Source: Candidatus Parcubacteria bacterium | Lineage (GTDB): Bacteria > Patescibacteriota > Patescibacteriia > PEXW01 | Reading direction: 5' to 3' | Assembly: GCA_003597955.1 (NCBI GenBank) | Contig: QZJU01000020.1 | Location: forward strand, 13,459-77,458 | DNA: 64,000 nt | Shown: positions 6,190 to 47,690 of the stretch, one piece after another | How positions within the stretch are numbered: the stretch's first letter is position 1 | How the letters are laid out: each line of letters opens with the position of its first letter | Program-made: the position numbers and the translations under genes | The notes under the pieces: model-generated | The model's database searches: none | The model's input: only the letters and a program-made list of their open reading frames with translations | Told to the model about the DNA's origin: nothing

Positions 6190-6322
6190 GAAGGTATTTT
6201 ATAACAGATCAGAAATAAATAAAAAATCGCCACGATTATTTCCGGCTGCGTTTTTTTGCGCTTGCTCCCGCACCACCCTGTACCCGAGTGCAACGAGTGG
6301 TACGGTGCTGGTGTGGAGCTGA

Positions 6323-7066
6323 CTATTTTTCGGCTTTAAACTCGGTTATATTGATTTCGCTGGTGTGCGATACCGTGATGTAGGTCGGAGCGTGTTCGCC
6401 GGTCCAGCACCCGGCGTTGAAATAAACCACGCCATCCTGATTGAAGCTTTCGGCGATGTGCGTATGCCCGCAAAAAACCGCGTCCAAGCGGTAATTCCTC
6501 GACCGAGCGTACCTAACAATGCCTTCGGCCACGGATTTGTTTATCCGCAGCCAAGTCTTGCTTTTGTCTTTTAAAAAACGGCTTAAATGGTGGCGTTTGC
6601 CATCGAATTTTTGAATAAAGTTGTAAATGTTTGAAGGAATCTTGCTGAATTTCGGCCAATTTTGAATCCATTTGTCAAACTGATCACCATGCATGGCCAA
6701 ATACCGCTTTTCTCCGACTTGCCACTGGAATTCCTCATGCACGGCCACACCCACCAGTTGCGACATTAAGTTCACGATGGCGCTATCATGGTTGCCCCGA
6801 ATCCAAACGGCTTTGGCATTACTTTTTCGGTCGTTAATATTGCGAATCAAACCGATTATTTTCCATTCAAATTTCCGAAAACGGGAAAAATTAAGATCGT
6901 CAAAAATGTCGCCTAACAGAATTAGCTGGGTAAATTTGTATCTGAAACGATCCTGCTGCAAACTCTGCAAAAATGCAAAAAATTCTTCGGATCGGCTTAA
7001 GCGCGAGCCCAGGTGTAAGTCCGAGACCAGAATAGTGTGAAAACCATTCGGATTTTGAAAATTCAT
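6323..7066 (-). CDS. Calcineurin-like metallophosphoesterase (LpxH-like)
   Basis: The motifs DLHLG, GDIFD, GNHD, HGD and GHTH are all present. Confidence 0.82.
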   Translation of the reverse strand: MNFQNPNGFHTILVSDLHLGSRLSRSEEFFAFLQSLQQDRFRYKFTQLILLGDIFDDLNFSRFRKFEWKIIGLIRNINDRKSNAKAVWIRGNHDSAIVNLMSQLVGVAVHEEFQWQVGEKRYLAMHGDQFDKWIQNWPKFSKIPSNIYNFIQKFDGKRHHLSRFLKDKSKTWLRINKSVAEGIVRYARSRNYRLDAVFCGHTHIAESFNQDGVVYFNAGCWTGEHAPTYITVSHTSEINITEFKAEK

Positions 7067-7333: not shown

Positions 7334-7798
7334 TTAAGCGGCTGAATAAGCACGAATGGGCTTCAGGGGTAAGCGACCTTTTTCTTGATAATAAGCAAGA
7401 TCTTCACCAGTCAGAATAAGAATTGGGATGCCGTGTCGTTCACAAAGCGCGATGGACTTCCGCATAACCTTGTGTTCAATAACTCGGCGTTTAACTTCAA
7501 TACCGATGATTGCAGAGCCATTGCATGGACGCCGGCCGACCCACCACCAGGGCTGGAAAAAGATAAAATCCGGACACCAAATTTTGGGCTGGCTGAATTC
7601 TTCTTCTTGAAAAACGAACTGAAGATGATGCAGAAATGGAATATCCATCTTAACCAAAAGGTTTGCGATTATTAACTCCTCATGAGTTTCAAATTTCATT
7701 GCGCCGAGTGTATACAACGAGCGTTTGGAATTGCATTTAATCGGCTTACACAGCAAACCATTAATGGTTAAAAAGCCATTTCCGGCTTCGACCTCCAA
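7334..7798 (-). CDS. Hypothetical protein, possible PD-(D/E)XK nuclease fold
   Basis: 154 aa. A D...E-x-K-like pattern (CPDFIF ... IGIEVK) is present. Otherwise unrecognised. Confidence 0.3.
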   Translation of the reverse strand: MEVEAGNGFLTINGLLCKPIKCNSKRSLYTLGAMKFETHEELIIANLLVKMDIPFLHHLQFVFQEEEFSQPKIWCPDFIFFQPWWWVGRRPCNGSAIIGIEVKRRVIEHKVMRKSIALCERHGIPILILTGEDLAYYQEKGRLPLKPIRAYSAA

Positions 7799-8118: not shown

Positions 8119-9321
8119 TTACTTACCCCAAATCGCGTCCAGAATTTTTATGCGCGTAATCATAAAAGCGGGTATCAAGCCGGAAAGCACGGCCACGACA
8201 ATGATGGCGAGTATGCGGATATTTATATCCAAAGCTTCAACCATCAGCACGGAATCGCCTATTGGTAGTTCGAACGGGTGAGCTTTGAAATACGGCGCGA
8301 CTCCACCAAAAAAAATCGCCAGGCCTAAGGCCACACCGGAAACGGAATAAATTAAGGTCTGCAAGACATAGGTGGCCCTGATGAGATAAGGTCGAATACC
8401 GATTGCCCGCAAAATGCCGATTTGCTGGCGTTTACTGGAAATATCGATGTAAATTACAATAAAAATCGTGACTGCGGCAATCAGCACGGCTACAAAAGAC
8501 ATAATAAAATTGATGCTTAAAAAGCTGGTGGTTACGCTGGACATCAGCCCGGCCGCGTCTTCCCAGGTTAGATACTGTCCGGCGATATTTTGAACCTTCA
8601 GCGCCTGGACAATTCCGGCTTCTTCGCCGGTTTTCTGCGCCCGGATGACTACGCTAGTGGCCTTTGATTTCAAGCTGGGCGCTAGCGCTTCCAAGGCTTG
8701 GGCGGTAATGAAAGCTCTTTGGTCCGTATCCAAGAATTTGGTGTAAAAAATCCCCTTTATGGTAAATTCTTTTTGAATACCATCAAAGGCCAAAACCACC
8801 TTTTCGCCAACTTGCGCACCTTTGAAAGAAAAAGCGTTCATCTCCACATCCGGCCCGCCCGCAATTTGGCGGCCGACAATAATTTTATCAAGATCGTCCT
8901 GCGCTAAATATTCGCCCGCCAACATTTTTTCCGAGACATTCGTCACTTGCTTCTCCAATTGCGGGTCGATTGCCAAAATCTGCCAATTGCCTTTTATGTT
9001 TTTGTATTTTAAACTCGCGGAAACCAGCATTTGGGCGCTCGCCGCCTTAACGCCTGGGATATTTTCAATTTGCGGAAGCAAAATGTCAGTATGGTCGAGG
9101 AAGTCCTGGCCTTCAGCCGGGGTTATAAAAACATGGCCAGTGTAGGTGTTGATAATCTGCTTGTTGCTGTTGTCGATTATGCCGTTAAAAAGCGAGGCCA
9201 CAAAAATCAAATTCACGAACGCCACAGCCATCAAGAAAATAATCAGGCCCAAAGTCCATTTATTGCCGTGCAATAAATACCGGGCGGTCAGAAAAAAAGG
9301 AATTTTACCTTCGCCTCTCAT
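8119..9321 (-). CDS. ABC transporter permease, FtsX/MacB/LolE-like
   Basis: 400 aa. An N-terminal TM is followed by a large extracytoplasmic domain and C-terminal FtsX-type TM helices. Its start overlaps the stop of the ATPase gene. Confidence 0.78.
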   Translation of the reverse strand: MRGEGKIPFFLTARYLLHGNKWTLGLIIFLMAVAFVNLIFVASLFNGIIDNSNKQIINTYTGHVFITPAEGQDFLDHTDILLPQIENIPGVKAASAQMLVSASLKYKNIKGNWQILAIDPQLEKQVTNVSEKMLAGEYLAQDDLDKIIVGRQIAGGPDVEMNAFSFKGAQVGEKVVLAFDGIQKEFTIKGIFYTKFLDTDQRAFITAQALEALAPSLKSKATSVVIRAQKTGEEAGIVQALKVQNIAGQYLTWEDAAGLMSSVTTSFLSINFIMSFVAVLIAAVTIFIVIYIDISSKRQQIGILRAIGIRPYLIRATYVLQTLIYSVSGVALGLAIFFGGVAPYFKAHPFELPIGDSVLMVEALDINIRILAIIVVAVLSGLIPAFMITRIKILDAIWGK

Positions 9322-9992
9322 ACGATTTTGCCGTCAGCTAATTTAACAAGACGGTTTGCGTATTTGGTTTCCTCGGGTTCATGAGTAATCATGACGACTG
9401 TGTGCTTTTCGCTATTAAGCTTTTTAAAAATATTCAAAATGTCTTTGGCTGCCACACTGTCAAGATTGGCAGTCGGCTCATCAGCGAACAGAATCATCGG
9501 GTCGTTAATTAAAGCGCGAGCAATGGCGACTTTTTGTTGCTCGCCACCGGAAAGCTGCCTGGGCAGATTCCGGGCTTTCTTTTCCAGTCCAACTTTAGCC
9601 AGAGTTTCTAGAGCACGTTTTTGACAAATTTTGGTTTTTTCCAGCATCATGGCGGGCAACATCACATTTTCCAGGGCAGACAACTCCGCAATCAGCGCGT
9701 ATTCCTGAAAAATATAACCCAATTTCAAGAGACGCAGGCGCGAGCGTTCAAGTTCATTCATTTTCGTGGTAGGCTGGTTTGCCAAAAAAATTTCACCTGT
9801 ATCGGGTTTGTCCAGTAAGCCCAGCTGCCTTAACAGCGTGGACTTGCCGGAGCCGTTGCGGCCGGTAATAACCAAGAAATCGCCCGGGTTTATCACCAGC
9901 GAGACCTCGCGCAAGGCTGGCACCTGGATTTCGCCTAAAGCGTAATTCTTGCAAATGTTTTTTACCTCGATCAAGCGGTTGGCAGCAGACAT
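9318..9992 (-). CDS. ABC transporter ATP-binding protein (MacB/LolD-like)
   Basis: Walker A GRNGSGKST, ABC signature LSGGEQQKVAIARAL and Walker B ILFADEPT are present. Confidence 0.9.
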   Translation of the reverse strand: MSAANRLIEVKNICKNYALGEIQVPALREVSLVINPGDFLVITGRNGSGKSTLLRQLGLLDKPDTGEIFLANQPTTKMNELERSRLRLLKLGYIFQEYALIAELSALENVMLPAMMLEKTKICQKRALETLAKVGLEKKARNLPRQLSGGEQQKVAIARALINDPMILFADEPTANLDSVAAKDILNIFKKLNSEKHTVVMITHEPEETKYANRLVKLADGKIV

Positions 9993-10775: not shown

Positions 10776-10868
10776 ATTTTTTTCGGTTTAAAGTTAAGGA
10801 TTTAAAAATATCAAAAGTTTTATAAAAAGAAAAGCCGCTAGTCCTTTTAACTAACGGCCAAATTTTAT

Positions 10869-10970
10869 CCCGCACCACTTTCCAGCAAAACGTTGTTATA
10901 CACTTTAAGATATTCATCCGGGCAAATATCTTCAAAATTAATTCGAGATTTAAGTGAAAAGTGGTGCGGG
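10869..10970. repeat. MITE-like palindromic element A (102 bp) with 15-18 bp terminal inverted repeats cccgcaccactttccagc / gaaaagtggtgcggg
   Basis: Perfect inverted termini. It shares its terminal sequence with elements B and C but has a different interior. It lies 4 nt downstream of the stop of the 10974..11516 gene. Confidence 0.7.
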
Positions 10971-10973
10971 ATT

Positions 10974-11597: not shown

Positions 11598-11702
11598 ACC
11601 CCGAACCACTTTCCAAATAAAACCTTAAGTTTAGTGTAAGGTTATTTGCCTAATGAACATCTTGGTACTAAGTGTTGGCGTTTTGCTGGAAAGTGGTGCG
11701 GG
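11598..11702. repeat. MITE-like element B (105 bp), homologous to element C, TIR ccccgaaccactttccaa / ctggaaagtggtgcgggg
   Basis: About 85% identical to the element at 22292..22396 over its full length (read by eye). It has inverted termini. Confidence 0.75.
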
Positions 11703-11740
11703 GTCAAGGCCAACTAAATCTGACTTGAAAATTCTTTGAC

Positions 11741-12925
11741 TTAATCCCTGAATAAAATCCCCTCTTTGGAATAAATCTTGCTGGCGGCGATTACAGCGAT
11801 GACGGCGTAAATAATCAGCGAGCCAAAAGTTATGAATATGTGAGCAGAATCAAAAGTTTTTATCAGGACTTCTTTCATGACAAAAACTGCATTGACGCCC
11901 GGGATGAAAAACATGCCCAGGCTTGGCTTCAAGCCGGGAAGCTGGGCGAAAATCGCCACCGGTAGTATAGCCAGCAAATAAAAAGGCGTGATGTAATTCT
12001 GCGCTTCTTTGTAGCTTTTGGCGAAAATCGCCACGGATAAAAGCAGGCCCGAGAACATAATGGCCATAATTACCCCAACCAAAAGCATTATGCCAATCGC
12101 GCCCAAAGTTAAATTAATTTCCACGACTTCGGTGCCGAATTTGGGCGGGAAAAACTTAAAAGCGAAATACAGGGAAAACATCGAAAGGATAATGCTGGCA
12201 CTGGCTGTCGCGGCCACGGCGGCAAATTTTCCGGCCACCAATTGTAATCTTGACGCCGGGCTTAACAACAGCGCTTCCAAAGTTTTCCTTTCTTTTTCTC
12301 CGGCGGAAACATCAATAGCGATGTACATTCCGCCGGCAATGGCGAATACCACGATGAACATCGGCAAAAGCAAGCCGATGAAAAATCCACCTCGTTCTTG
12401 AGCTGTGGCAATGTCTACGCTAACGGGCTTGAGTGCGCTCAGGGTTTCTGTAGCCAGGCCTTTTTGGCTTAATCTTATTCTGGCTTGTTCTTGATTAAAA
12501 GCTTGCAATAAATTTATGACTTTTGAATAAGCCGTGCTGGAATCCACATTTGAACTTTTTTGCACGACTCTGACTTCTGTCGGCTTTTGTGTTTTTAAAT
12601 TGGCTTCAAAGTCCGTTTCAACATTCAAATACACATTTATCGTTCCGGCTTCAATGCCCTGATCGAAATTCTCAACCTGCTTAAGCTCAACTTGCTTTTG
12701 CTTATTTAGAAAATCCAATAACGTCGGCGCGGACTGCTGATTTTCCACGGCCAAAAGCACGGGTTTTTCCGCAGCCTTGGTAATTTGCGCCTCCTGAAAT
12801 TTCACGCTGCCGATCATAATGGCCGGCATCAATACGATTGGCATGACCACGGCCGTCAGCAAAGTCCGCCGGTCGCGTAGGCTGTCTAAAATTTCTTTTT
12901 TGAAAACCGTAAAAACTTTATTCAT
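11741..12925 (-). CDS. ABC-2 family transporter permease (NatB-like)
   Basis: 394 aa. An N-terminal TM and periplasmic loop are followed by six C-terminal TM helices. It overlaps the ATPase gene. Confidence 0.7.
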   Translation of the reverse strand: MNKVFTVFKKEILDSLRDRRTLLTAVVMPIVLMPAIMIGSVKFQEAQITKAAEKPVLLAVENQQSAPTLLDFLNKQKQVELKQVENFDQGIEAGTINVYLNVETDFEANLKTQKPTEVRVVQKSSNVDSSTAYSKVINLLQAFNQEQARIRLSQKGLATETLSALKPVSVDIATAQERGGFFIGLLLPMFIVVFAIAGGMYIAIDVSAGEKERKTLEALLLSPASRLQLVAGKFAAVAATASASIILSMFSLYFAFKFFPPKFGTEVVEINLTLGAIGIMLLVGVIMAIMFSGLLLSVAIFAKSYKEAQNYITPFYLLAILPVAIFAQLPGLKPSLGMFFIPGVNAVFVMKEVLIKTFDSAHIFITFGSLIIYAVIAVIAASKIYSKEGILFRD

Positions 12926-21401: not shown

Positions 21402-22263
21402 TCAGCAAGATTATCCCGGCCGCAAATAATACTCCGCTCAAATTATTCAGATTGGTTAGGGGTGATTTTAAGAAAATCGTTGATAAGATCGTTGTCACAA
21501 ATGTCGCCGGCACCAACAAACTAGCCACTACCGAAGCGGGCGCATGTTTTAAGGCCGTGTACCATGTTAAAACATATGCCAAAAGCAGCATCGAGGGAAT
21601 CAGAGTCCAAAGCCATTGCTGGCCTGAAAGCCCGGCGACTAAACCGACATTCCCCTGCCAGGCAACGACCGCGAATAAAATTATTGAACCAAAAACCATC
21701 CGCGCCGAAGCCACGGCGACGCTGGAAACCTCCCGTAAAACTTTTTTGGCGATTATATTCTCCGCAGCCCAAAGCAGGGTCGCGGCTAAAATCATAATTT
21801 CGCCTTTGCCAAAATGAAAATTCTGAAAACCGCCCAGCAAGAAAGTGCCACCTAAAAATAAACCTAAAGCGCCGATTTGCAGCTTGGTTATTTTCTCCTT
21901 TAAAAACCAAACCGCCAAGATTGCCACCCAGATAAACAAGGTTTTATGGATAAAGCTGGCGGCCAAGGCTGAAGTCAAAGACAGGCCGGTAAAAAACAAG
22001 ATAAAAGGCGCACTCCCGCCGATTACGCCAACGGTTAAAAGTTTAAGCCAAGTTTTTCTGTTTAGGGATTTAAATTCTTTCATTTTGCCCAAAAAAAGCA
22101 CCAGGCCGATTAAGAAGACGGCGACAAGCGAATTTTTAAGGGTGGTAAAGACAACTGGATTTTTTACGGCCGTCACGCCGATTTTGGTGATGAAGTTTGC
22201 GATACCGGAAATCAAGGCGGTGGTTAAAGCCAGGCTCATGCCTAATTTTAAATTTTTATTCAT
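21337..22263 (-). CDS. EamA/DMT family transporter
   Basis: 10 TM helices in a duplicated EamA-like arrangement. 308 aa. Confidence 0.7.
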   Translation of the reverse strand: MNKNLKLGMSLALTTALISGIANFITKIGVTAVKNPVVFTTLKNSLVAVFLIGLVLFLGKMKEFKSLNRKTWLKLLTVGVIGGSAPFILFFTGLSLTSALAASFIHKTLFIWVAILAVWFLKEKITKLQIGALGLFLGGTFLLGGFQNFHFGKGEIMILAATLLWAAENIIAKKVLREVSSVAVASARMVFGSIILFAVVAWQGNVGLVAGLSGQQWLWTLIPSMLLLAYVLTWYTALKHAPASVVASLLVPATFVTTILSTIFLKSPLTNLNNLSGVLFAAGIILLIVNHRKSKFSKVNVSQTQPWA

Positions 22264-22291
22264 AATGCTGATATTTTAGCATAGACCTTGA

Positions 22292-22396
22292 CCCCGCACC
22301 ACTTTCCAAAATAAACTTTAAGTTTTTTGTAAGGCTATTTACCTAATAAACATATTAGTGATAAGTGTTGGCGTTTTGCTGGAAAGTGGTGCGGGG
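22292..22396. repeat. MITE-like element C (105 bp), homolog of element B
   Basis: TIR ccccgcaccactttccaaa / tttgctggaaagtggtgcgggg. The interior is near-identical to B. It sits in the divergent promoter region between the EamA and NUDIX genes. Confidence 0.75.
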
Positions 22397-22507
22397 TTGA
22401 CAAAAACCAAAAAATCCTTTAATATCATCAGCTAAGTCTGCTCAAAAATTCTTTTAAAATTTGAGCCTAATAAACCGATCATTACATAAACCACTGGAGG
22501 TTTTCGA

Positions 22508-41270: not shown

Positions 41271-41518
41271 GGCATTAGTATATCACTTCGGCCTTTTGGA
41301 AATTTCTTGAAATCTTCAGTACTTAAAAACATTTTTATGCCTCGATGCTGGAGATGCGATGGAAAGGTCATGGCCCCACCCACGCGCCCATTGACATTTC
41401 CTCCCAAATACATTATTCTGACTTATTCTTTGACAATATCCCGAGTAATAACCTCGGGCCGAAATCTCGCCGGGACGCGAGAAAACAAACAGTAATCCTG
41501 AAAAGGAGGATGAAGACG

Positions 41519-42421
41519 ATGTCACAGAAGACATTGATCCCGTCCAGAGTCACCCGTGATTCCAAGAAGGGCCAGAGAATTCTGGACCTCGTGGGTGCCG
41601 TCATCAACAAGCTTGGCCTTGATGAAGACCAGGCCCAGCGGGTAATCGAGAATCCCGAATTCCCGCCAGCTGTCGAAGCCGTATTGCGAACCTACGCGAT
41701 TCCGAATGAGTACGCCGATGAAGAGGTCTCCTCGAATTATGGCTACTTGTCCGGCTATCGCGAGGCAGCACCGATCGCTGACCAGATGCGCATCTTGCGC
41801 GAATACTTCCCGAACCTTGGTGATCCGGATGAAAGCTTCGCCAAGCAGGAACGTCCGGCAAACAGCGAAGGGTACTTCTGTATCCCGCGCTGGAAGCTGA
41901 TCGCCCCGACCTACAACGAGGCTGTCGAGAGGGTGCTCGAAGCGCTCAACAAACAACGCAAGGGCAAGTTCGTCAACTACCACAAAGGTGAACTCGGCCC
42001 GGATCGTTTGAGGCAGGGCGAACGGAAGCGTCTCGCTTTCGAGCGGCTCACCGTAGAGCAGGGACGTGACGTCCTTGTGGTGGCTGCCCAGTTCGGCTTC
42101 CAGCATCACGGACGTTCGGTTCGCAGAGCTCGTGCAGTCATGCCTGGCATCGAGTTCGGCCTTGGTGCCTTCGAGATCGGCATCATGCTGCTGACGCATG
42201 CGATCCGTCTCCAGCATCTCGACGACCTCTGGATCGACTGCCCTGGTGATGAGTACTCACCTGACGCTGGTGGCCGCTTCGGCGACGCCCCGTACTTCTA
42301 CTTCGGCAATGGCAAGCTCGAGTTCGGCACGGACCTCGTCGGCAATGCCAGCGGCCGCTGTGGGTCGGCGTCCGGGTTTTTACCCGCCGAAGCAACTGCG
42401 AAGGCGGGCTCTCCGCAGTAG
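41519..42421 (+). CDS. Hypothetical protein encoded by a GC-rich (about 60%) foreign-looking segment
   Basis: The ORF is open from 41345. The start was chosen at the ATG 9 nt after an AGGAGG RBS. Codon third positions are G/C-rich, unlike the rest of the window. No recognised domain. Confidence 0.5.
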   Translation: MSQKTLIPSRVTRDSKKGQRILDLVGAVINKLGLDEDQAQRVIENPEFPPAVEAVLRTYAIPNEYADEEVSSNYGYLSGYREAAPIADQMRILREYFPNLGDPDESFAKQERPANSEGYFCIPRWKLIAPTYNEAVERVLEALNKQRKGKFVNYHKGELGPDRLRQGERKRLAFERLTVEQGRDVLVVAAQFGFQHHGRSVRRARAVMPGIEFGLGAFEIGIMLLTHAIRLQHLDDLWIDCPGDEYSPDAGGRFGDAPYFYFGNGKLEFGTDLVGNASGRCGSASGFLPAEATAKAGSPQ

Positions 42422-42444
42422 AGTTGAGAATTGAACATTGGTTC

Positions 42445-42473
42445 CCCGCACCAGAACGAAGTTCGGTGCGGGG
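42445..42473. repeat. REP-like hairpin ccccgcaccagaacgaagttcggtgcgggg
   Basis: Perfect 10-bp stem. It belongs to the 'ccccgcacca' palindrome family and lies right after the GC-rich gene. Confidence 0.65.
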
Positions 42474-42518
42474 CAAGCTTGAATCTCTTGATCTATTGAT
42501 TCTTGAGTTAGTTTTTTG

Positions 42519-42552
42519 GGGTTATCCTTACATGGATAACCCTCTTTTTTAT
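42519..42552 (+). terminator. Rho-independent terminator
   Basis: Hairpin ggttatcc-ttacat-ggataacc followed by a T6 run. Confidence 0.6.
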
Positions 42553-42627
42553 TAACGGCCTTGACAATGACCTAAATTTACGGTAAGCTACCGGGTAAAA
42601 ATCAAACACCAAAAAAGGAGTCTTTTT

Positions 42628-43032
42628 ATGCAGATCAACTACTTCTTTCAGGCTGTCTGGAATAATATCCGGCTCTTGACTAATGTCGTTCCGAGCACAG
42701 ATTCGGTTCCGGAAAGAATTTACAAATTGACTGACGAGGTCGATCCGATCCGGGTGGAAGAAGCCCTACTTTGGATAGCAGACGCGACCATCGGCCGGGA
42801 GGGCTTGTACATACATGACGGCGGCGATCCTGCTCAGGTCGTCGGCCAGCTAAATTTGATCGCCCAGCAATTTCGAGTTCTTTATCCCAGCAAACTTGAA
42901 TGCACTGACCTAAGGCTCTGGAGCGATCTTCTCGCCGGTCTGGCGCTGGCCTACCTGGCACCGAAAAGTTCGGTTTTTCTTGACACCGTTGCCAAAAAAC
43001 CGAATTCCATCTATGAGCTTGTGGCTGCCTAA
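42628..43032 (+). CDS. Hypothetical protein (moderately GC-elevated)
   Basis: 134 aa. An AAGGAG RBS is upstream and a terminator hairpin follows at 43038..43080. Confidence 0.4.
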   Translation: MQINYFFQAVWNNIRLLTNVVPSTDSVPERIYKLTDEVDPIRVEEALLWIADATIGREGLYIHDGGDPAQVVGQLNLIAQQFRVLYPSKLECTDLRLWSDLLAGLALAYLAPKSSVFLDTVAKKPNSIYELVAA

Positions 43033-43095
43033 GACTTTGCCCGCGTCGAATTGAATTAACGACGCGGGTTTACTTTTTCTATATACTGACTGTAT

Positions 43096-43662: not shown

Positions 43663-44069
43663 GGGGATGTTCATAAGTTGATAGTTTGCTTTGACAATTA
43701 GCCTGCGGACCGCCTTTTTCGGGAATGGCGTAAAACTTTCTGAAAATTAGACAAATGCCAATTCATTTGTCAGCAAAGTGAAGACTGCATTGGCCAAAAC
43801 CTTTGCCGTCCCAGCTTTCGCTCCGGTTGTTGCTTAAAAACCAATAACCCATTCGCCCCGCAGCCTGATGCGGGATTCGCGAGTGTTAAATTTCAGGCTG
43901 GATATTTTTCACCGCGCGCTGAAAAATATTGAGAAACTTGCGCGCTTTGGCGTTTTGCGATCTTGGTTGTTCCCTGCGCAAAATGTCGAAAACCCTTGAA
44001 CAACCTATGTCCGAAGAAAGTTAATTGCCGGTAAACTAGACAGGGGTGCAAGACCCCTCATCTCCACCA
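43663..44069 (+). ncRNA. ssrA: tmRNA (ssrA)
   Basis: The 5' GGGGATG pairs with the 3' CATCTCC-A-CCA, giving a 7-bp acceptor stem with a G3·U70 wobble (the alanine identity element). A T-arm AGGGG-TGCAAGA-CCCCT directly precedes it. A D-analog UUCAUAAGUUGAUA follows the 5' strand. It sits immediately downstream of smpB. A candidate tag ORF ends ...FAPVVA-TAA. Confidence 0.72.
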
Positions 44070-44156: not shown

Positions 44157-44200
44157 GGTTCATGCCCTGTACCCGAGCTTCGCGGGTGGTACAGGGAAAG
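44157..44200. repeat. Palindromic hairpin ccctgtacccgagcttcgcgggtggtacaggg (family 2, related to 6270..6312)
   Basis: Seen directly. It has nested inverted repeats. It lies between the tmRNA 3' end and the GIY-YIG gene. Confidence 0.6.
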
Positions 44201-44218
44201 AGTAAAAAGGGACAAACT

Positions 44219-44485
44219 ATGAACTTCAAATTTGTTTACATTTTGCAAAGCTTAAAAGACCACCGGCTCTATATTGGATTTACCGAAAAGCTCAAAACTC
44301 GGATGAAGGCACATGCAGCCGGTCAAAATCAATCTACCAAAAACCGAAGACCATTGAAATTAATTTATTTCGAAGGCTTTTTATCCGAAATTGATGCTCG
44401 AAGACGAGAAAAGTACTTCAAGTCCACCAAGGGGAAAACCACTCTCAAAATAATGCTTAAAGATCATTTTAGAACCCAAGAGTAA
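44219..44485 (+). CDS. GIY-YIG nuclease family protein (second copy)
   Basis: FKFVYILQS...RLYIGFTEKLKTRMKAHAAG...LIYFEGF...ARRREKYFKS. An AAGGGA RBS precedes the ATG at 44219. Confidence 0.8.
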   Translation: MNFKFVYILQSLKDHRLYIGFTEKLKTRMKAHAAGQNQSTKNRRPLKLIYFEGFLSEIDARRREKYFKSTKGKTTLKIMLKDHFRTQE

Positions 44486-45136: not shown

Positions 45137-45196
45137 AGCGCTCCCCGGGCTAACTATCTGGAGTTTCAACTCTTGTCGGCTTTCGGGGCGCGGAAC

Positions 45197-45234
45197 CCCG
45201 CACCATCACACAAAATTCGGGACTGGTGCGTGGG
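45197..45234. repeat. REP-like hairpin ccccgcaccatcacacaaaattcgggactggtgcgtggg
   Basis: 'ccccgcacca' family. It lies between infC and rpmI. Confidence 0.55.
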
Positions 45235-45308
45235 TAAGCCCAACCTTATCCAGACACTTGACGCATCGGCAAAAAGCCGATAGAGTTTAACTCACCTTTA
45301 ACGATTTT

Positions 45309-47651: not shown

Positions 47652-47690
47652 CCCCGCACCATTCCTCGCTAACGCTCGGATGGTACGGGG
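47652..47690. repeat. REP-like imperfect hairpin ccccgcaccattcc...ggatggtacgggg
   Basis: 'ccccgcacca' family. It lies just upstream of tRNA-Asp. Confidence 0.5.

Follow-up and report, generated by a model that had tools for sequence, protein, structure and literature searches.

A GC-rich gene between argS and smpB was analysed in a 64,000-nt stretch of Candidatus Parcubacteria bacterium DNA (contig QZJU01000020.1), referred to as the window. The gene, ORF1 (open reading frame 1; 41519-42421, forward strand, 300 aa), very probably encodes a variable protein of the diversity-generating retroelement (DGR) clade that is specific to Patescibacteria; it would be an orphan copy, and its high GC content would be a trait of the gene family. 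Patescibacteria have their own DGR clade, with targets that lack recognisable domains (PMC8144416, PMC5758913), and ORF1 is a further member of an already known class of DGR variable proteins. The original prediction, made from the sequence alone, had described the region as a foreign segment of approximately 1.8 kb with two ORFs and an unknown function; the homology of ORF1 to DGR variable proteins supersedes the last of these statements.

The ORF1 family and its linkage to DGRs

ORF1 had 2,027 homologs among 5.8 billion proteins (1,598 clusters at 50% identity), with approximately 50% identity across Patescibacteria. All named homologs were annotated as "hypothetical protein" of Patescibacteria, Parcubacteria or Paceibacterota, and their genomic context varied. 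The family was almost wholly cellular, with only three loci in the 2.9 million viral contigs of IMG/VR. As had been predicted, ORF1 carried no recognisable domain: neither ORF1 nor the second ORF of the segment, ORF2, matched a model in Pfam, PHROGs, PADLOC or NCBIfam. A profile search with ORF1 against the PDB sequences detected no related solved structure, and Foldseek detected no significant match to the ORF1 model in PDB or BFVD.

The identity of the family was given by the loci of its members. In locus L009, a bAvd gene and a gene for an RVT_1 reverse transcriptase (RT) come after the homolog, which shares 89% identity with ORF1. The 3′ end of the L009 gene, its variable repeat (VR, 6290-6427), is repeated 550 nt downstream as a template repeat (TR, 6846-6977), and this repeat is a DGR signature, because all mismatches in the main 99-nt repeat block were at adenines of the downstream copy. 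Eighty loci were taken from species-representative genomes and searched with the RT and Avd proteins of L009, and each locus was also searched for repeats of the 3′ end of its own target gene. RT was present in 39 of the 84 nonredundant loci, the window among them, and a VR/TR pair of approximately 130 nt in 35 of these 39. In the 42 repeat pairs detected, a set that includes a few tandem paralog copies with longer, non-adenine-specific repeats (L010, L018 and L040), 716 of 848 mismatches were at adenines of the TR, and most single loci reached 100%. Most RT-bearing loci had the Avd gene and the DGR reverse transcriptase adjoining the target. The TR was approximately 0.5 kb from the target gene in approximately half of the related loci, and was followed by divergent Avd and RT genes. 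Among the 42 loci flanked by 5 kb or more on each side, 23 had an RT and 16 had neither RT nor TR; the DGR target of Patescibacteria often stands alone.

The structure prediction of ORF1 was of high confidence (predicted local distance difference test, pLDDT, 93). The fold is predicted to be C-type-lectin/FGE-like, with the VR inside the lectin-like domain; a helical N-terminus precedes this predicted ligand-binding domain, and the last 40 codons, approximately, are the VR.

Several loci of the family showed other arrangements. Tandem target paralogs were observed in several loci, among them the three named. A DGR in decay was observed in L005/L013: VR (8735-8865) and TR (9274-9404) still form an intact pair, all 17 mismatches lying at TR adenines, Avd is reduced to its C-terminal 52 aa (9454-9609), and RT was not found within 8 kb. 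The homologs P0006 and P0010 were approximately 480 aa long (478-482), with two matched stretches or a longer N-terminal region, and the match spans of L026, L031 and L071 were of the same kind.

High GC content of the target gene

Within the window, 200-nt sliding windows gave 55-64% GC at 41500-42440 and approximately 45% around it, which agrees with the approximately 60% previously noted. ORF1 had a GC content of 0.591 (0.635, 0.428 and 0.711 at first, second and third codon positions; GC1, GC2 and GC3, respectively), and the remainder of the window had 0.456. In a rough call of approximately 60 genes in the window, the GC3 of ORF1 was the highest (z = +2.9), in line with the predicted G/C-rich third positions; infC and rplT were next (0.58-0.59), and the mean was 0.50. 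ORF2 (42628-43032, forward strand) was where the prediction had placed it and had a terminator of its own, but its composition was not anomalous (GC 0.51; GC3 0.578, together with infC and rplT and within the range of normal genes). Because of this grouping, the compositional anomaly is a single coding sequence of approximately 0.9 kb and not a two-ORF block of 1.8 kb. With promoter and terminator, the ORF1 unit spans approximately 1.27 kb (about 41.29-42.56 kb).

The gene call also agreed with the original prediction of a plus-strand ORF of about 300 aa with a good ribosome-binding site. The GGAGG at 41505-41509 abuts an in-frame ATG at 41510, which would give 303 aa, and lies 9 nt ahead of the ATG at 41519. 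The latter is most likely the start, because close homologs begin at the second ATG (MSQKTLIPS). The long open frame expected on the opposite strand was also present; this antisense ORF of 231 aa had no family match in the four model collections used for ORF1, and we take it to be a by-product of high GC.

The GC excess was found throughout the family. Target genes averaged 58.2 ± 4.2% GC and their flanks 42.6 ± 7.1%, a mean excess of 15.6 points, and 68 of the 69 loci whose flanks could be used had a target richer in GC than its surroundings, in hosts that span 26-61% GC. Mean GC3 was approximately 0.73 in targets, against an average of approximately 0.43 in host genes. In the 29 intact cassettes, GC averaged 39.4% in RT and Avd, 41.9% in the flank, and 58.5% in the target (paired t-test, P = 1e-16). 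Regressed on host GC, RT had a slope of 0.92 and an intercept of approximately 0, and the target a slope of 0.44 and an intercept of 0.40. Orphan and DGR-linked targets showed the same excess (+15.1 points each). GC3 was flat through the target gene (0.67-0.80 in 90-nt bins), and the 100 nt on either side were at host level. At third positions, A was 0.12 in targets and 0.27 in host genes, T 0.17 and 0.30, and C 0.41 and 0.22, respectively, and G was also elevated. The promoter and 3′ untranslated region (UTR) elements of the family were AT-rich. Thus, high GC is a codon-level trait of the family, confined to the coding sequence.

These distributions excluded several sources of the high GC. 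A high-GC donor, which the original prediction had proposed, was ruled out because the excess is family-wide and ends with the coding sequence, while the RT and Avd partners of the same cassettes are host-like. Transfer of a whole cassette was ruled out on the host-level GC of RT and Avd. Regional or VR-centred mutational bias (for example, biased gene conversion from retrohoming) was ruled out because the excess ends at the borders of the coding sequence, with flat GC3 and flanks at host level within 100 nt. Adenine avoidance was ruled out because T is depleted too, A3 and T3 both being approximately halved; adenine made up 0.40 of A+T in targets, 0.47 in host genes, and 0.42 in RT genes.

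Synonymous sites should be saturated across the family at approximately 45-66% protein identity, and if so, the GC3 level is actively maintained. The translation genes of the window shift in the same direction, although less far (0.58-0.59 against the mean of 0.50). For this reason, strong codon-usage selection, i.e., very high expression, is the simplest hypothesis for the GC3 excess, and translational or mRNA-level selection on the target is the simplest candidate cause. More doubtfully, the excess might represent a new constraint tied to the status of DGR target, such as extreme expression or selection on the scaffold mRNA or DNA duplex. In the literature, we found no paper describing a target-specific GC excess; Wu et al. 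compared the GC of whole DGRs with that of the host only (PMC5758913).

The variable repeat, 3′ UTR and locus of the window copy

The VR equivalent of ORF1, roughly its last 40 conserved codons (42259-42379, forward strand), aligns to the VR and TR of L009, L008 and L005. Relatives that are 82-89% identical to ORF1 diverge from it chiefly at residues 253-285. Measured against the TR of another genome, that of L009, the closest DGR-linked relative, the window VR showed 28 mismatches in total, of which 19 coincided with TR adenines; 59% of the A sites and 10% of the non-A sites differed, and the divergence of the gene body was 12.5%. The window VR thus looks like the product of adenine mutagenesis.

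At the 3′ end of the VR is a GC-rich core, GGGTCGGCGTCCGG (42362-42375, forward strand), that resembles an initiation of mutagenic homing (IMH) site. This core does not vary among the VR and TR rows of alignment A4, and its position is kept in 65 of the examined loci. The same alignment shows an in-frame 30-nt insertion in the window copy (42385-42414, ± approximately 5 nt, forward strand) in which CCCGCC...GGCGGG forms a weak palindrome. Through the insertion, the protein gains the tail PAEATAKAGS and the IMH core is parted from the usual ...CCGCAG-stop ending of the family, the distance from core to stop being 46 nt in the window and 16-19 nt in most loci. The insertion folds weakly (z -1.3). 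In the orphan locus L003, whose protein is 67% identical, a different in-frame GC-rich palindrome of 30 nt was observed at the same site (about 7596-7625), and the window and L003 each also have a different GC-rich hairpin at the matching point of the 3′ UTR.

No TR-like repeat for the VR of ORF1 was found in the window or in approximately 17 kb beyond it, i.e., approximately 10 kb past its end (L090) and approximately 6.8 kb past its start (L092), approximately 81 kb in total. Likewise, neither tblastn with 68 RT and Avd proteins of the family nor hidden Markov model searches of the six-frame translation detected an RT or Avd in the window, L090 or L092. Therefore, ORF1 is an orphan over at least approximately 81 kb. 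Two samples of the Joint Genome Institute (JGI) yielded three contigs (121, 126 and 7.3 kb) that encode an identical ORF1 protein, as does a metagenome-assembled genome (MAG) at NCBI (RJO59018.1), and the layout argS-ORF1-ORF2-smpB was identical in the three JGI contigs.

Downstream of the stop codon, the predicted repetitive extragenic palindromic (REP)-like hairpin was confirmed at 42444-42473 (forward strand), with 13 bp and one bulge, a GAA loop, and a folding energy (ΔG) of -14.8 kcal/mol (z -5.5). It is missing at this point from the closest homologs, L009 and L008, relative to which it is inserted. The window contains 8 copies of its arm, CCCCGCACC, where 0.48 would be expected, and none of 100 shuffles had as many. 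GC-rich palindromes with the arm CCCCGCACC(A) lie at 11655-11744, 22252-22437, 34487, 42444-42473, 45196-45235 and 47652-47690, and also at 10867-10972. Two of the sites with this arm make up a palindromic element of approximately 105 nt (22291-22397), which has an 88%-identical direct copy at 11598-11704; a direct-repeat pair of 107 nt was detected. Because the arm recurs in the window and the hairpin is missing in the closest homologs, the hairpin appears to be a genome-specific REP-like or miniature inverted-repeat transposable element (MITE)-like element, as surveyed in 64 kb, and not a DGR feature.

The hairpin is followed by a remnant of a family 3′-UTR element with CTTGA repeats (42478-42510, forward strand), which has DNA similarity to L010, L072, L058, L036 and L023 (alignment A5). 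Only the second of its helices (helix 2) is preserved, the break in helix 1 adjoining the REP-like insertion, and the element of the window folds weakly. Across the family, the element follows the target stop codon (for example, L033 10895-10955 and L081 1596-1650). The two-helix structure was proposed by hand and then tested for covariation: 80.5% of cells were paired against approximately 40% with one strand slid, 10 of 12 pairs changed on both sides, and 70 compensatory cells were observed against 34.6 in shuffled alignments (none of 500 shuffles reached the observed value). RNAalifold gave no consensus structure for the family 3′ UTR. The frequent G-U pairs suggest that the element acts at the RNA or single-strand level. 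It may be the target-recognition element of the clade, a counterpart of the hairpin of Bordetella phage BPP-1, or an mRNA element.

The terminator predicted after the hairpin was also found (42518-42553, forward strand), with a stem GGGGTTATCC...GGATAACCC at 42518-42543 and a T-run; its motif GGGTTATCC recurs at the same position across the ORF1 family. Upstream, a family-conserved block (41384-41437, forward strand) matches the DNA ahead of the homologs in L009, L008 and L010 at approximately 79% identity, and the promoter scan detected a promoter-like TTGACA-17 nt-TATTCT in it (41391-41419). Since other family members have homologous upstream blocks and 3′ UTRs, the ORF1 unit arrived with its own regulatory regions. 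Rfam matched nothing within 41.2-43.1 kb.

The two closest syntenic relatives that were fetched have ArgRS proteins 71% and 62% identical to that of the window, and both keep ileS-GT4-argS on one side and smpB-infC-rplT on the other. In neither was an ORF1 homolog found between argS and smpB, so ORF1 would be either a lineage-specific insertion here or a gene lost in those two relatives. The 142-aa gene directly upstream of smpB in both relatives (L096 5771-6199 and L097 6023-6451, both on the reverse strand) aligns with ORF2 over its full length at 25% identity (pairwise E-values of 2e-14 and 8e-7). A word-indexed search of the 5.8 billion proteins gave no match to ORF2, which appears to be an ancestral, fast-evolving syntenic gene upstream of smpB. 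Its syntenic family is all-helical and smpB-linked, and an AlphaFold2 prediction from the ORF2 sequence alone gave no usable information (pLDDT 44). L097 also carries an apparent tandem paralog of the ORF2-like gene (147 aa). ORF2 was considered as a remnant of Avd or TR and rejected, as it has no similarity to the family loci and resembles the gene upstream of smpB.

Only the ORF1 unit, from promoter to terminator, is lineage-specific at argS-smpB. The claim of an insertion between these two genes therefore stands in part: ORF1 is missing in the two closest syntenic relatives, but a loss there would also account for this, and the second ORF, as an apparently ancestral syntenic gene, does not belong to a foreign segment. 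No flanking direct repeats or target-site duplications were found around ORF1, and no integrase or transposase in 41.2-43.1 kb. The tmRNA gene is 1.2 kb from the ORF1 segment, beyond smpB. ORF1 does not show the features of a genomic island (donor-like composition, mobility genes, direct repeats, and insertion at a tRNA or tmRNA gene).

Other features were observed nearby. The tmRNA gene (43663-44069, forward strand; Rfam, 81.8 bits) directly follows smpB, and a small GIY-YIG-domain ORF follows the tmRNA (44162-44485, forward strand). In L092, a second GIY-YIG ORF was seen beside a UvrD-like helicase, close to where the window starts. Just past the window end, L090 2242-5550 contains eight consecutive same-strand ORFs of 65-137 aa without a Pfam match.

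Proposed history of the window copy and comparison with known systems

In the DGR-linked loci of the family, a transcript of the TR would serve as the template for renewing the VR, random bases taking the place of adenines in the copy (mutagenic retrohoming). The VR of the window would have been written in the same way, since it carries the adenine signature. Because there is no local cassette and the two syntenic relatives lack the gene, ORF1 may be a transposed or transferred target whose cassette has since been lost. The identical proteins, the 30-nt insertion past the IMH core, and the broken helix 1 suggest that the window copy is no longer diversified. We infer that ORF1 is now most probably a fixed binding variant and not actively diversified, a step to which we assign slightly better than an even chance.

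Clearly less probable is a still-active remote target, its VR continuing to be diversified by a DGR cassette that would lie more than 30-48 kb from it in the same genome. In favour of such a target are the intact IMH core and, downstream, part of the family 3′ element and GC-rich hairpins; 16 of the 42 well-flanked family loci are also without local RT and TR, and other DGR lineages do have remote targets (PMC5758913). Some points also weigh against the main reading of ORF1: the search covered approximately 81 kb of the genome, and a DGR elsewhere could still act on ORF1; identical assembly consensuses are compatible with VR heterogeneity within the population; and inspection of the ORF1 N-terminus revealed no obvious signal peptide. 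Against a remote cassette are the lack of TR, RT and Avd in those 81 kb, the identity of the protein in assemblies of two samples, the position of the 30-nt insertion right after the IMH core, and the broken helix 1 of the 3′ element. In addition, DGRs of the candidate phyla radiation (CPR) are reported to be mostly single-target, targets more than 100 kb away being reported only around DGR lineage 4 (PMC5758913), and decayed cassettes are known in the family itself, as in L005 with its TR, 52-aa Avd remnant and no RT.

The other explanations are weaker than either of these. It is improbable that ORF1 is mainly an enzyme or another non-variable protein, with its invariant polar residues as an active site and the DGR link incidental. 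Nine residues are invariant or almost so in the family (Q184, Q194, R233, H199, S203, R205, R206, E215 and H230), FGE-like folds include FGE, EgtB and OvoA, and the body of the target is conserved above RT (mean identity of 66% against 59%). However, ORF1 has no FGE-sulfatase Pfam match, approximately half of the loci are DGR-linked, and the VR falls inside the lectin-like domain of the model; no catalytic activity is known for TvpA, which is also FGE-like. A recent horizontal acquisition from a high-GC donor, the composition not yet having drifted to that of the host, is very unlikely. ORF1 is missing at the site in two syntenic relatives, it is the GC3 outlier of the window, and its best homolog is 89% identical, against 72% for the best ArgRS homolog. 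All its relatives, however, are from Patescibacteria, the gene is GC-rich in nearly all of them whatever the host GC, the cassette partners and the regulatory elements do not share the excess, and saturated synonymous sites would make the high GC3 an equilibrium state. The least credible explanation, which we regard as practically excluded, is an assembly chimera in which a GC-rich fragment of another organism was joined into the contig. The change in composition is abrupt, and the promoter and terminator boundaries coincide with it, but three contigs from two JGI samples have the same layout and an identical protein, which is also present in the NCBI MAG, and the flanking 5′ and 3′ non-coding elements are those of the family and continuous into host sequence.

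Reading ORF1 as an orphan DGR variable protein gives RJO59018.1, a "hypothetical protein", a concrete identity as a homolog of DGR variable proteins. An island of unusual GC content need not be of foreign origin; here, the composition is the mark of a gene family. The frequency of stand-alone targets and the decayed cassettes bear on how often diversification is switched off and a variant fixed. If the target-specific GC3 excess holds in other DGR families, it would offer a cheap way to find DGR targets and would raise a question of mechanism, and if it reflects a constraint on targets, the compositional signature could point to DGR targets that are orphan or remote in genomes of Patescibacteria. 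The GC3 excess of targets, the frequency of orphans and the covarying 3′-UTR element are modest leads.

When ORF1 was compared with known systems, TvpA of Treponema denticola (PDB 2Y3C) and Mtd of Bordetella phage BPP-1 (PDB 1YU0) were alike in the predicted C-type-lectin/FGE-like fold, but sequence identity was below 10% and the N-terminal part was different. The target hairpin of BPP-1 has a GC stem of 7-10 bp and a GRNA tetraloop (PMC3240598), whereas the element of the ORF1 family consists of AT-rich two-helix CTTGA repeats without a GRNA tetraloop; the GC hairpins of the window have loops of 3 and 14 nt, which are not GRNA. The hairpin at 42444-42473 resembles REP- or MITE-like repeats in that its arm, CCCCGCACC(A), is present at at least six other sites of the window, but the copies vary in loop sequence and length, and no transposase was identified. 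The closest systems to ORF1 were the variable proteins of the DGR clade that Roux et al. 2021 named "clade 2" (PMC8144416) and that Wu et al. 2018 treated as the "CPR set", with VR groups left unclassified (PMC5758913). The window copy differs from this CPR DGR clade in the lack of a cassette within approximately 81 kb and in the insertions past the IMH core and in the 3′ UTR. They are alike in phylum, in a single target without recognisable domains or a transmembrane segment, in the C-terminal VR, in the cassette of TR, Avd and RT with adenine-specific mismatches, and in being almost wholly cellular.

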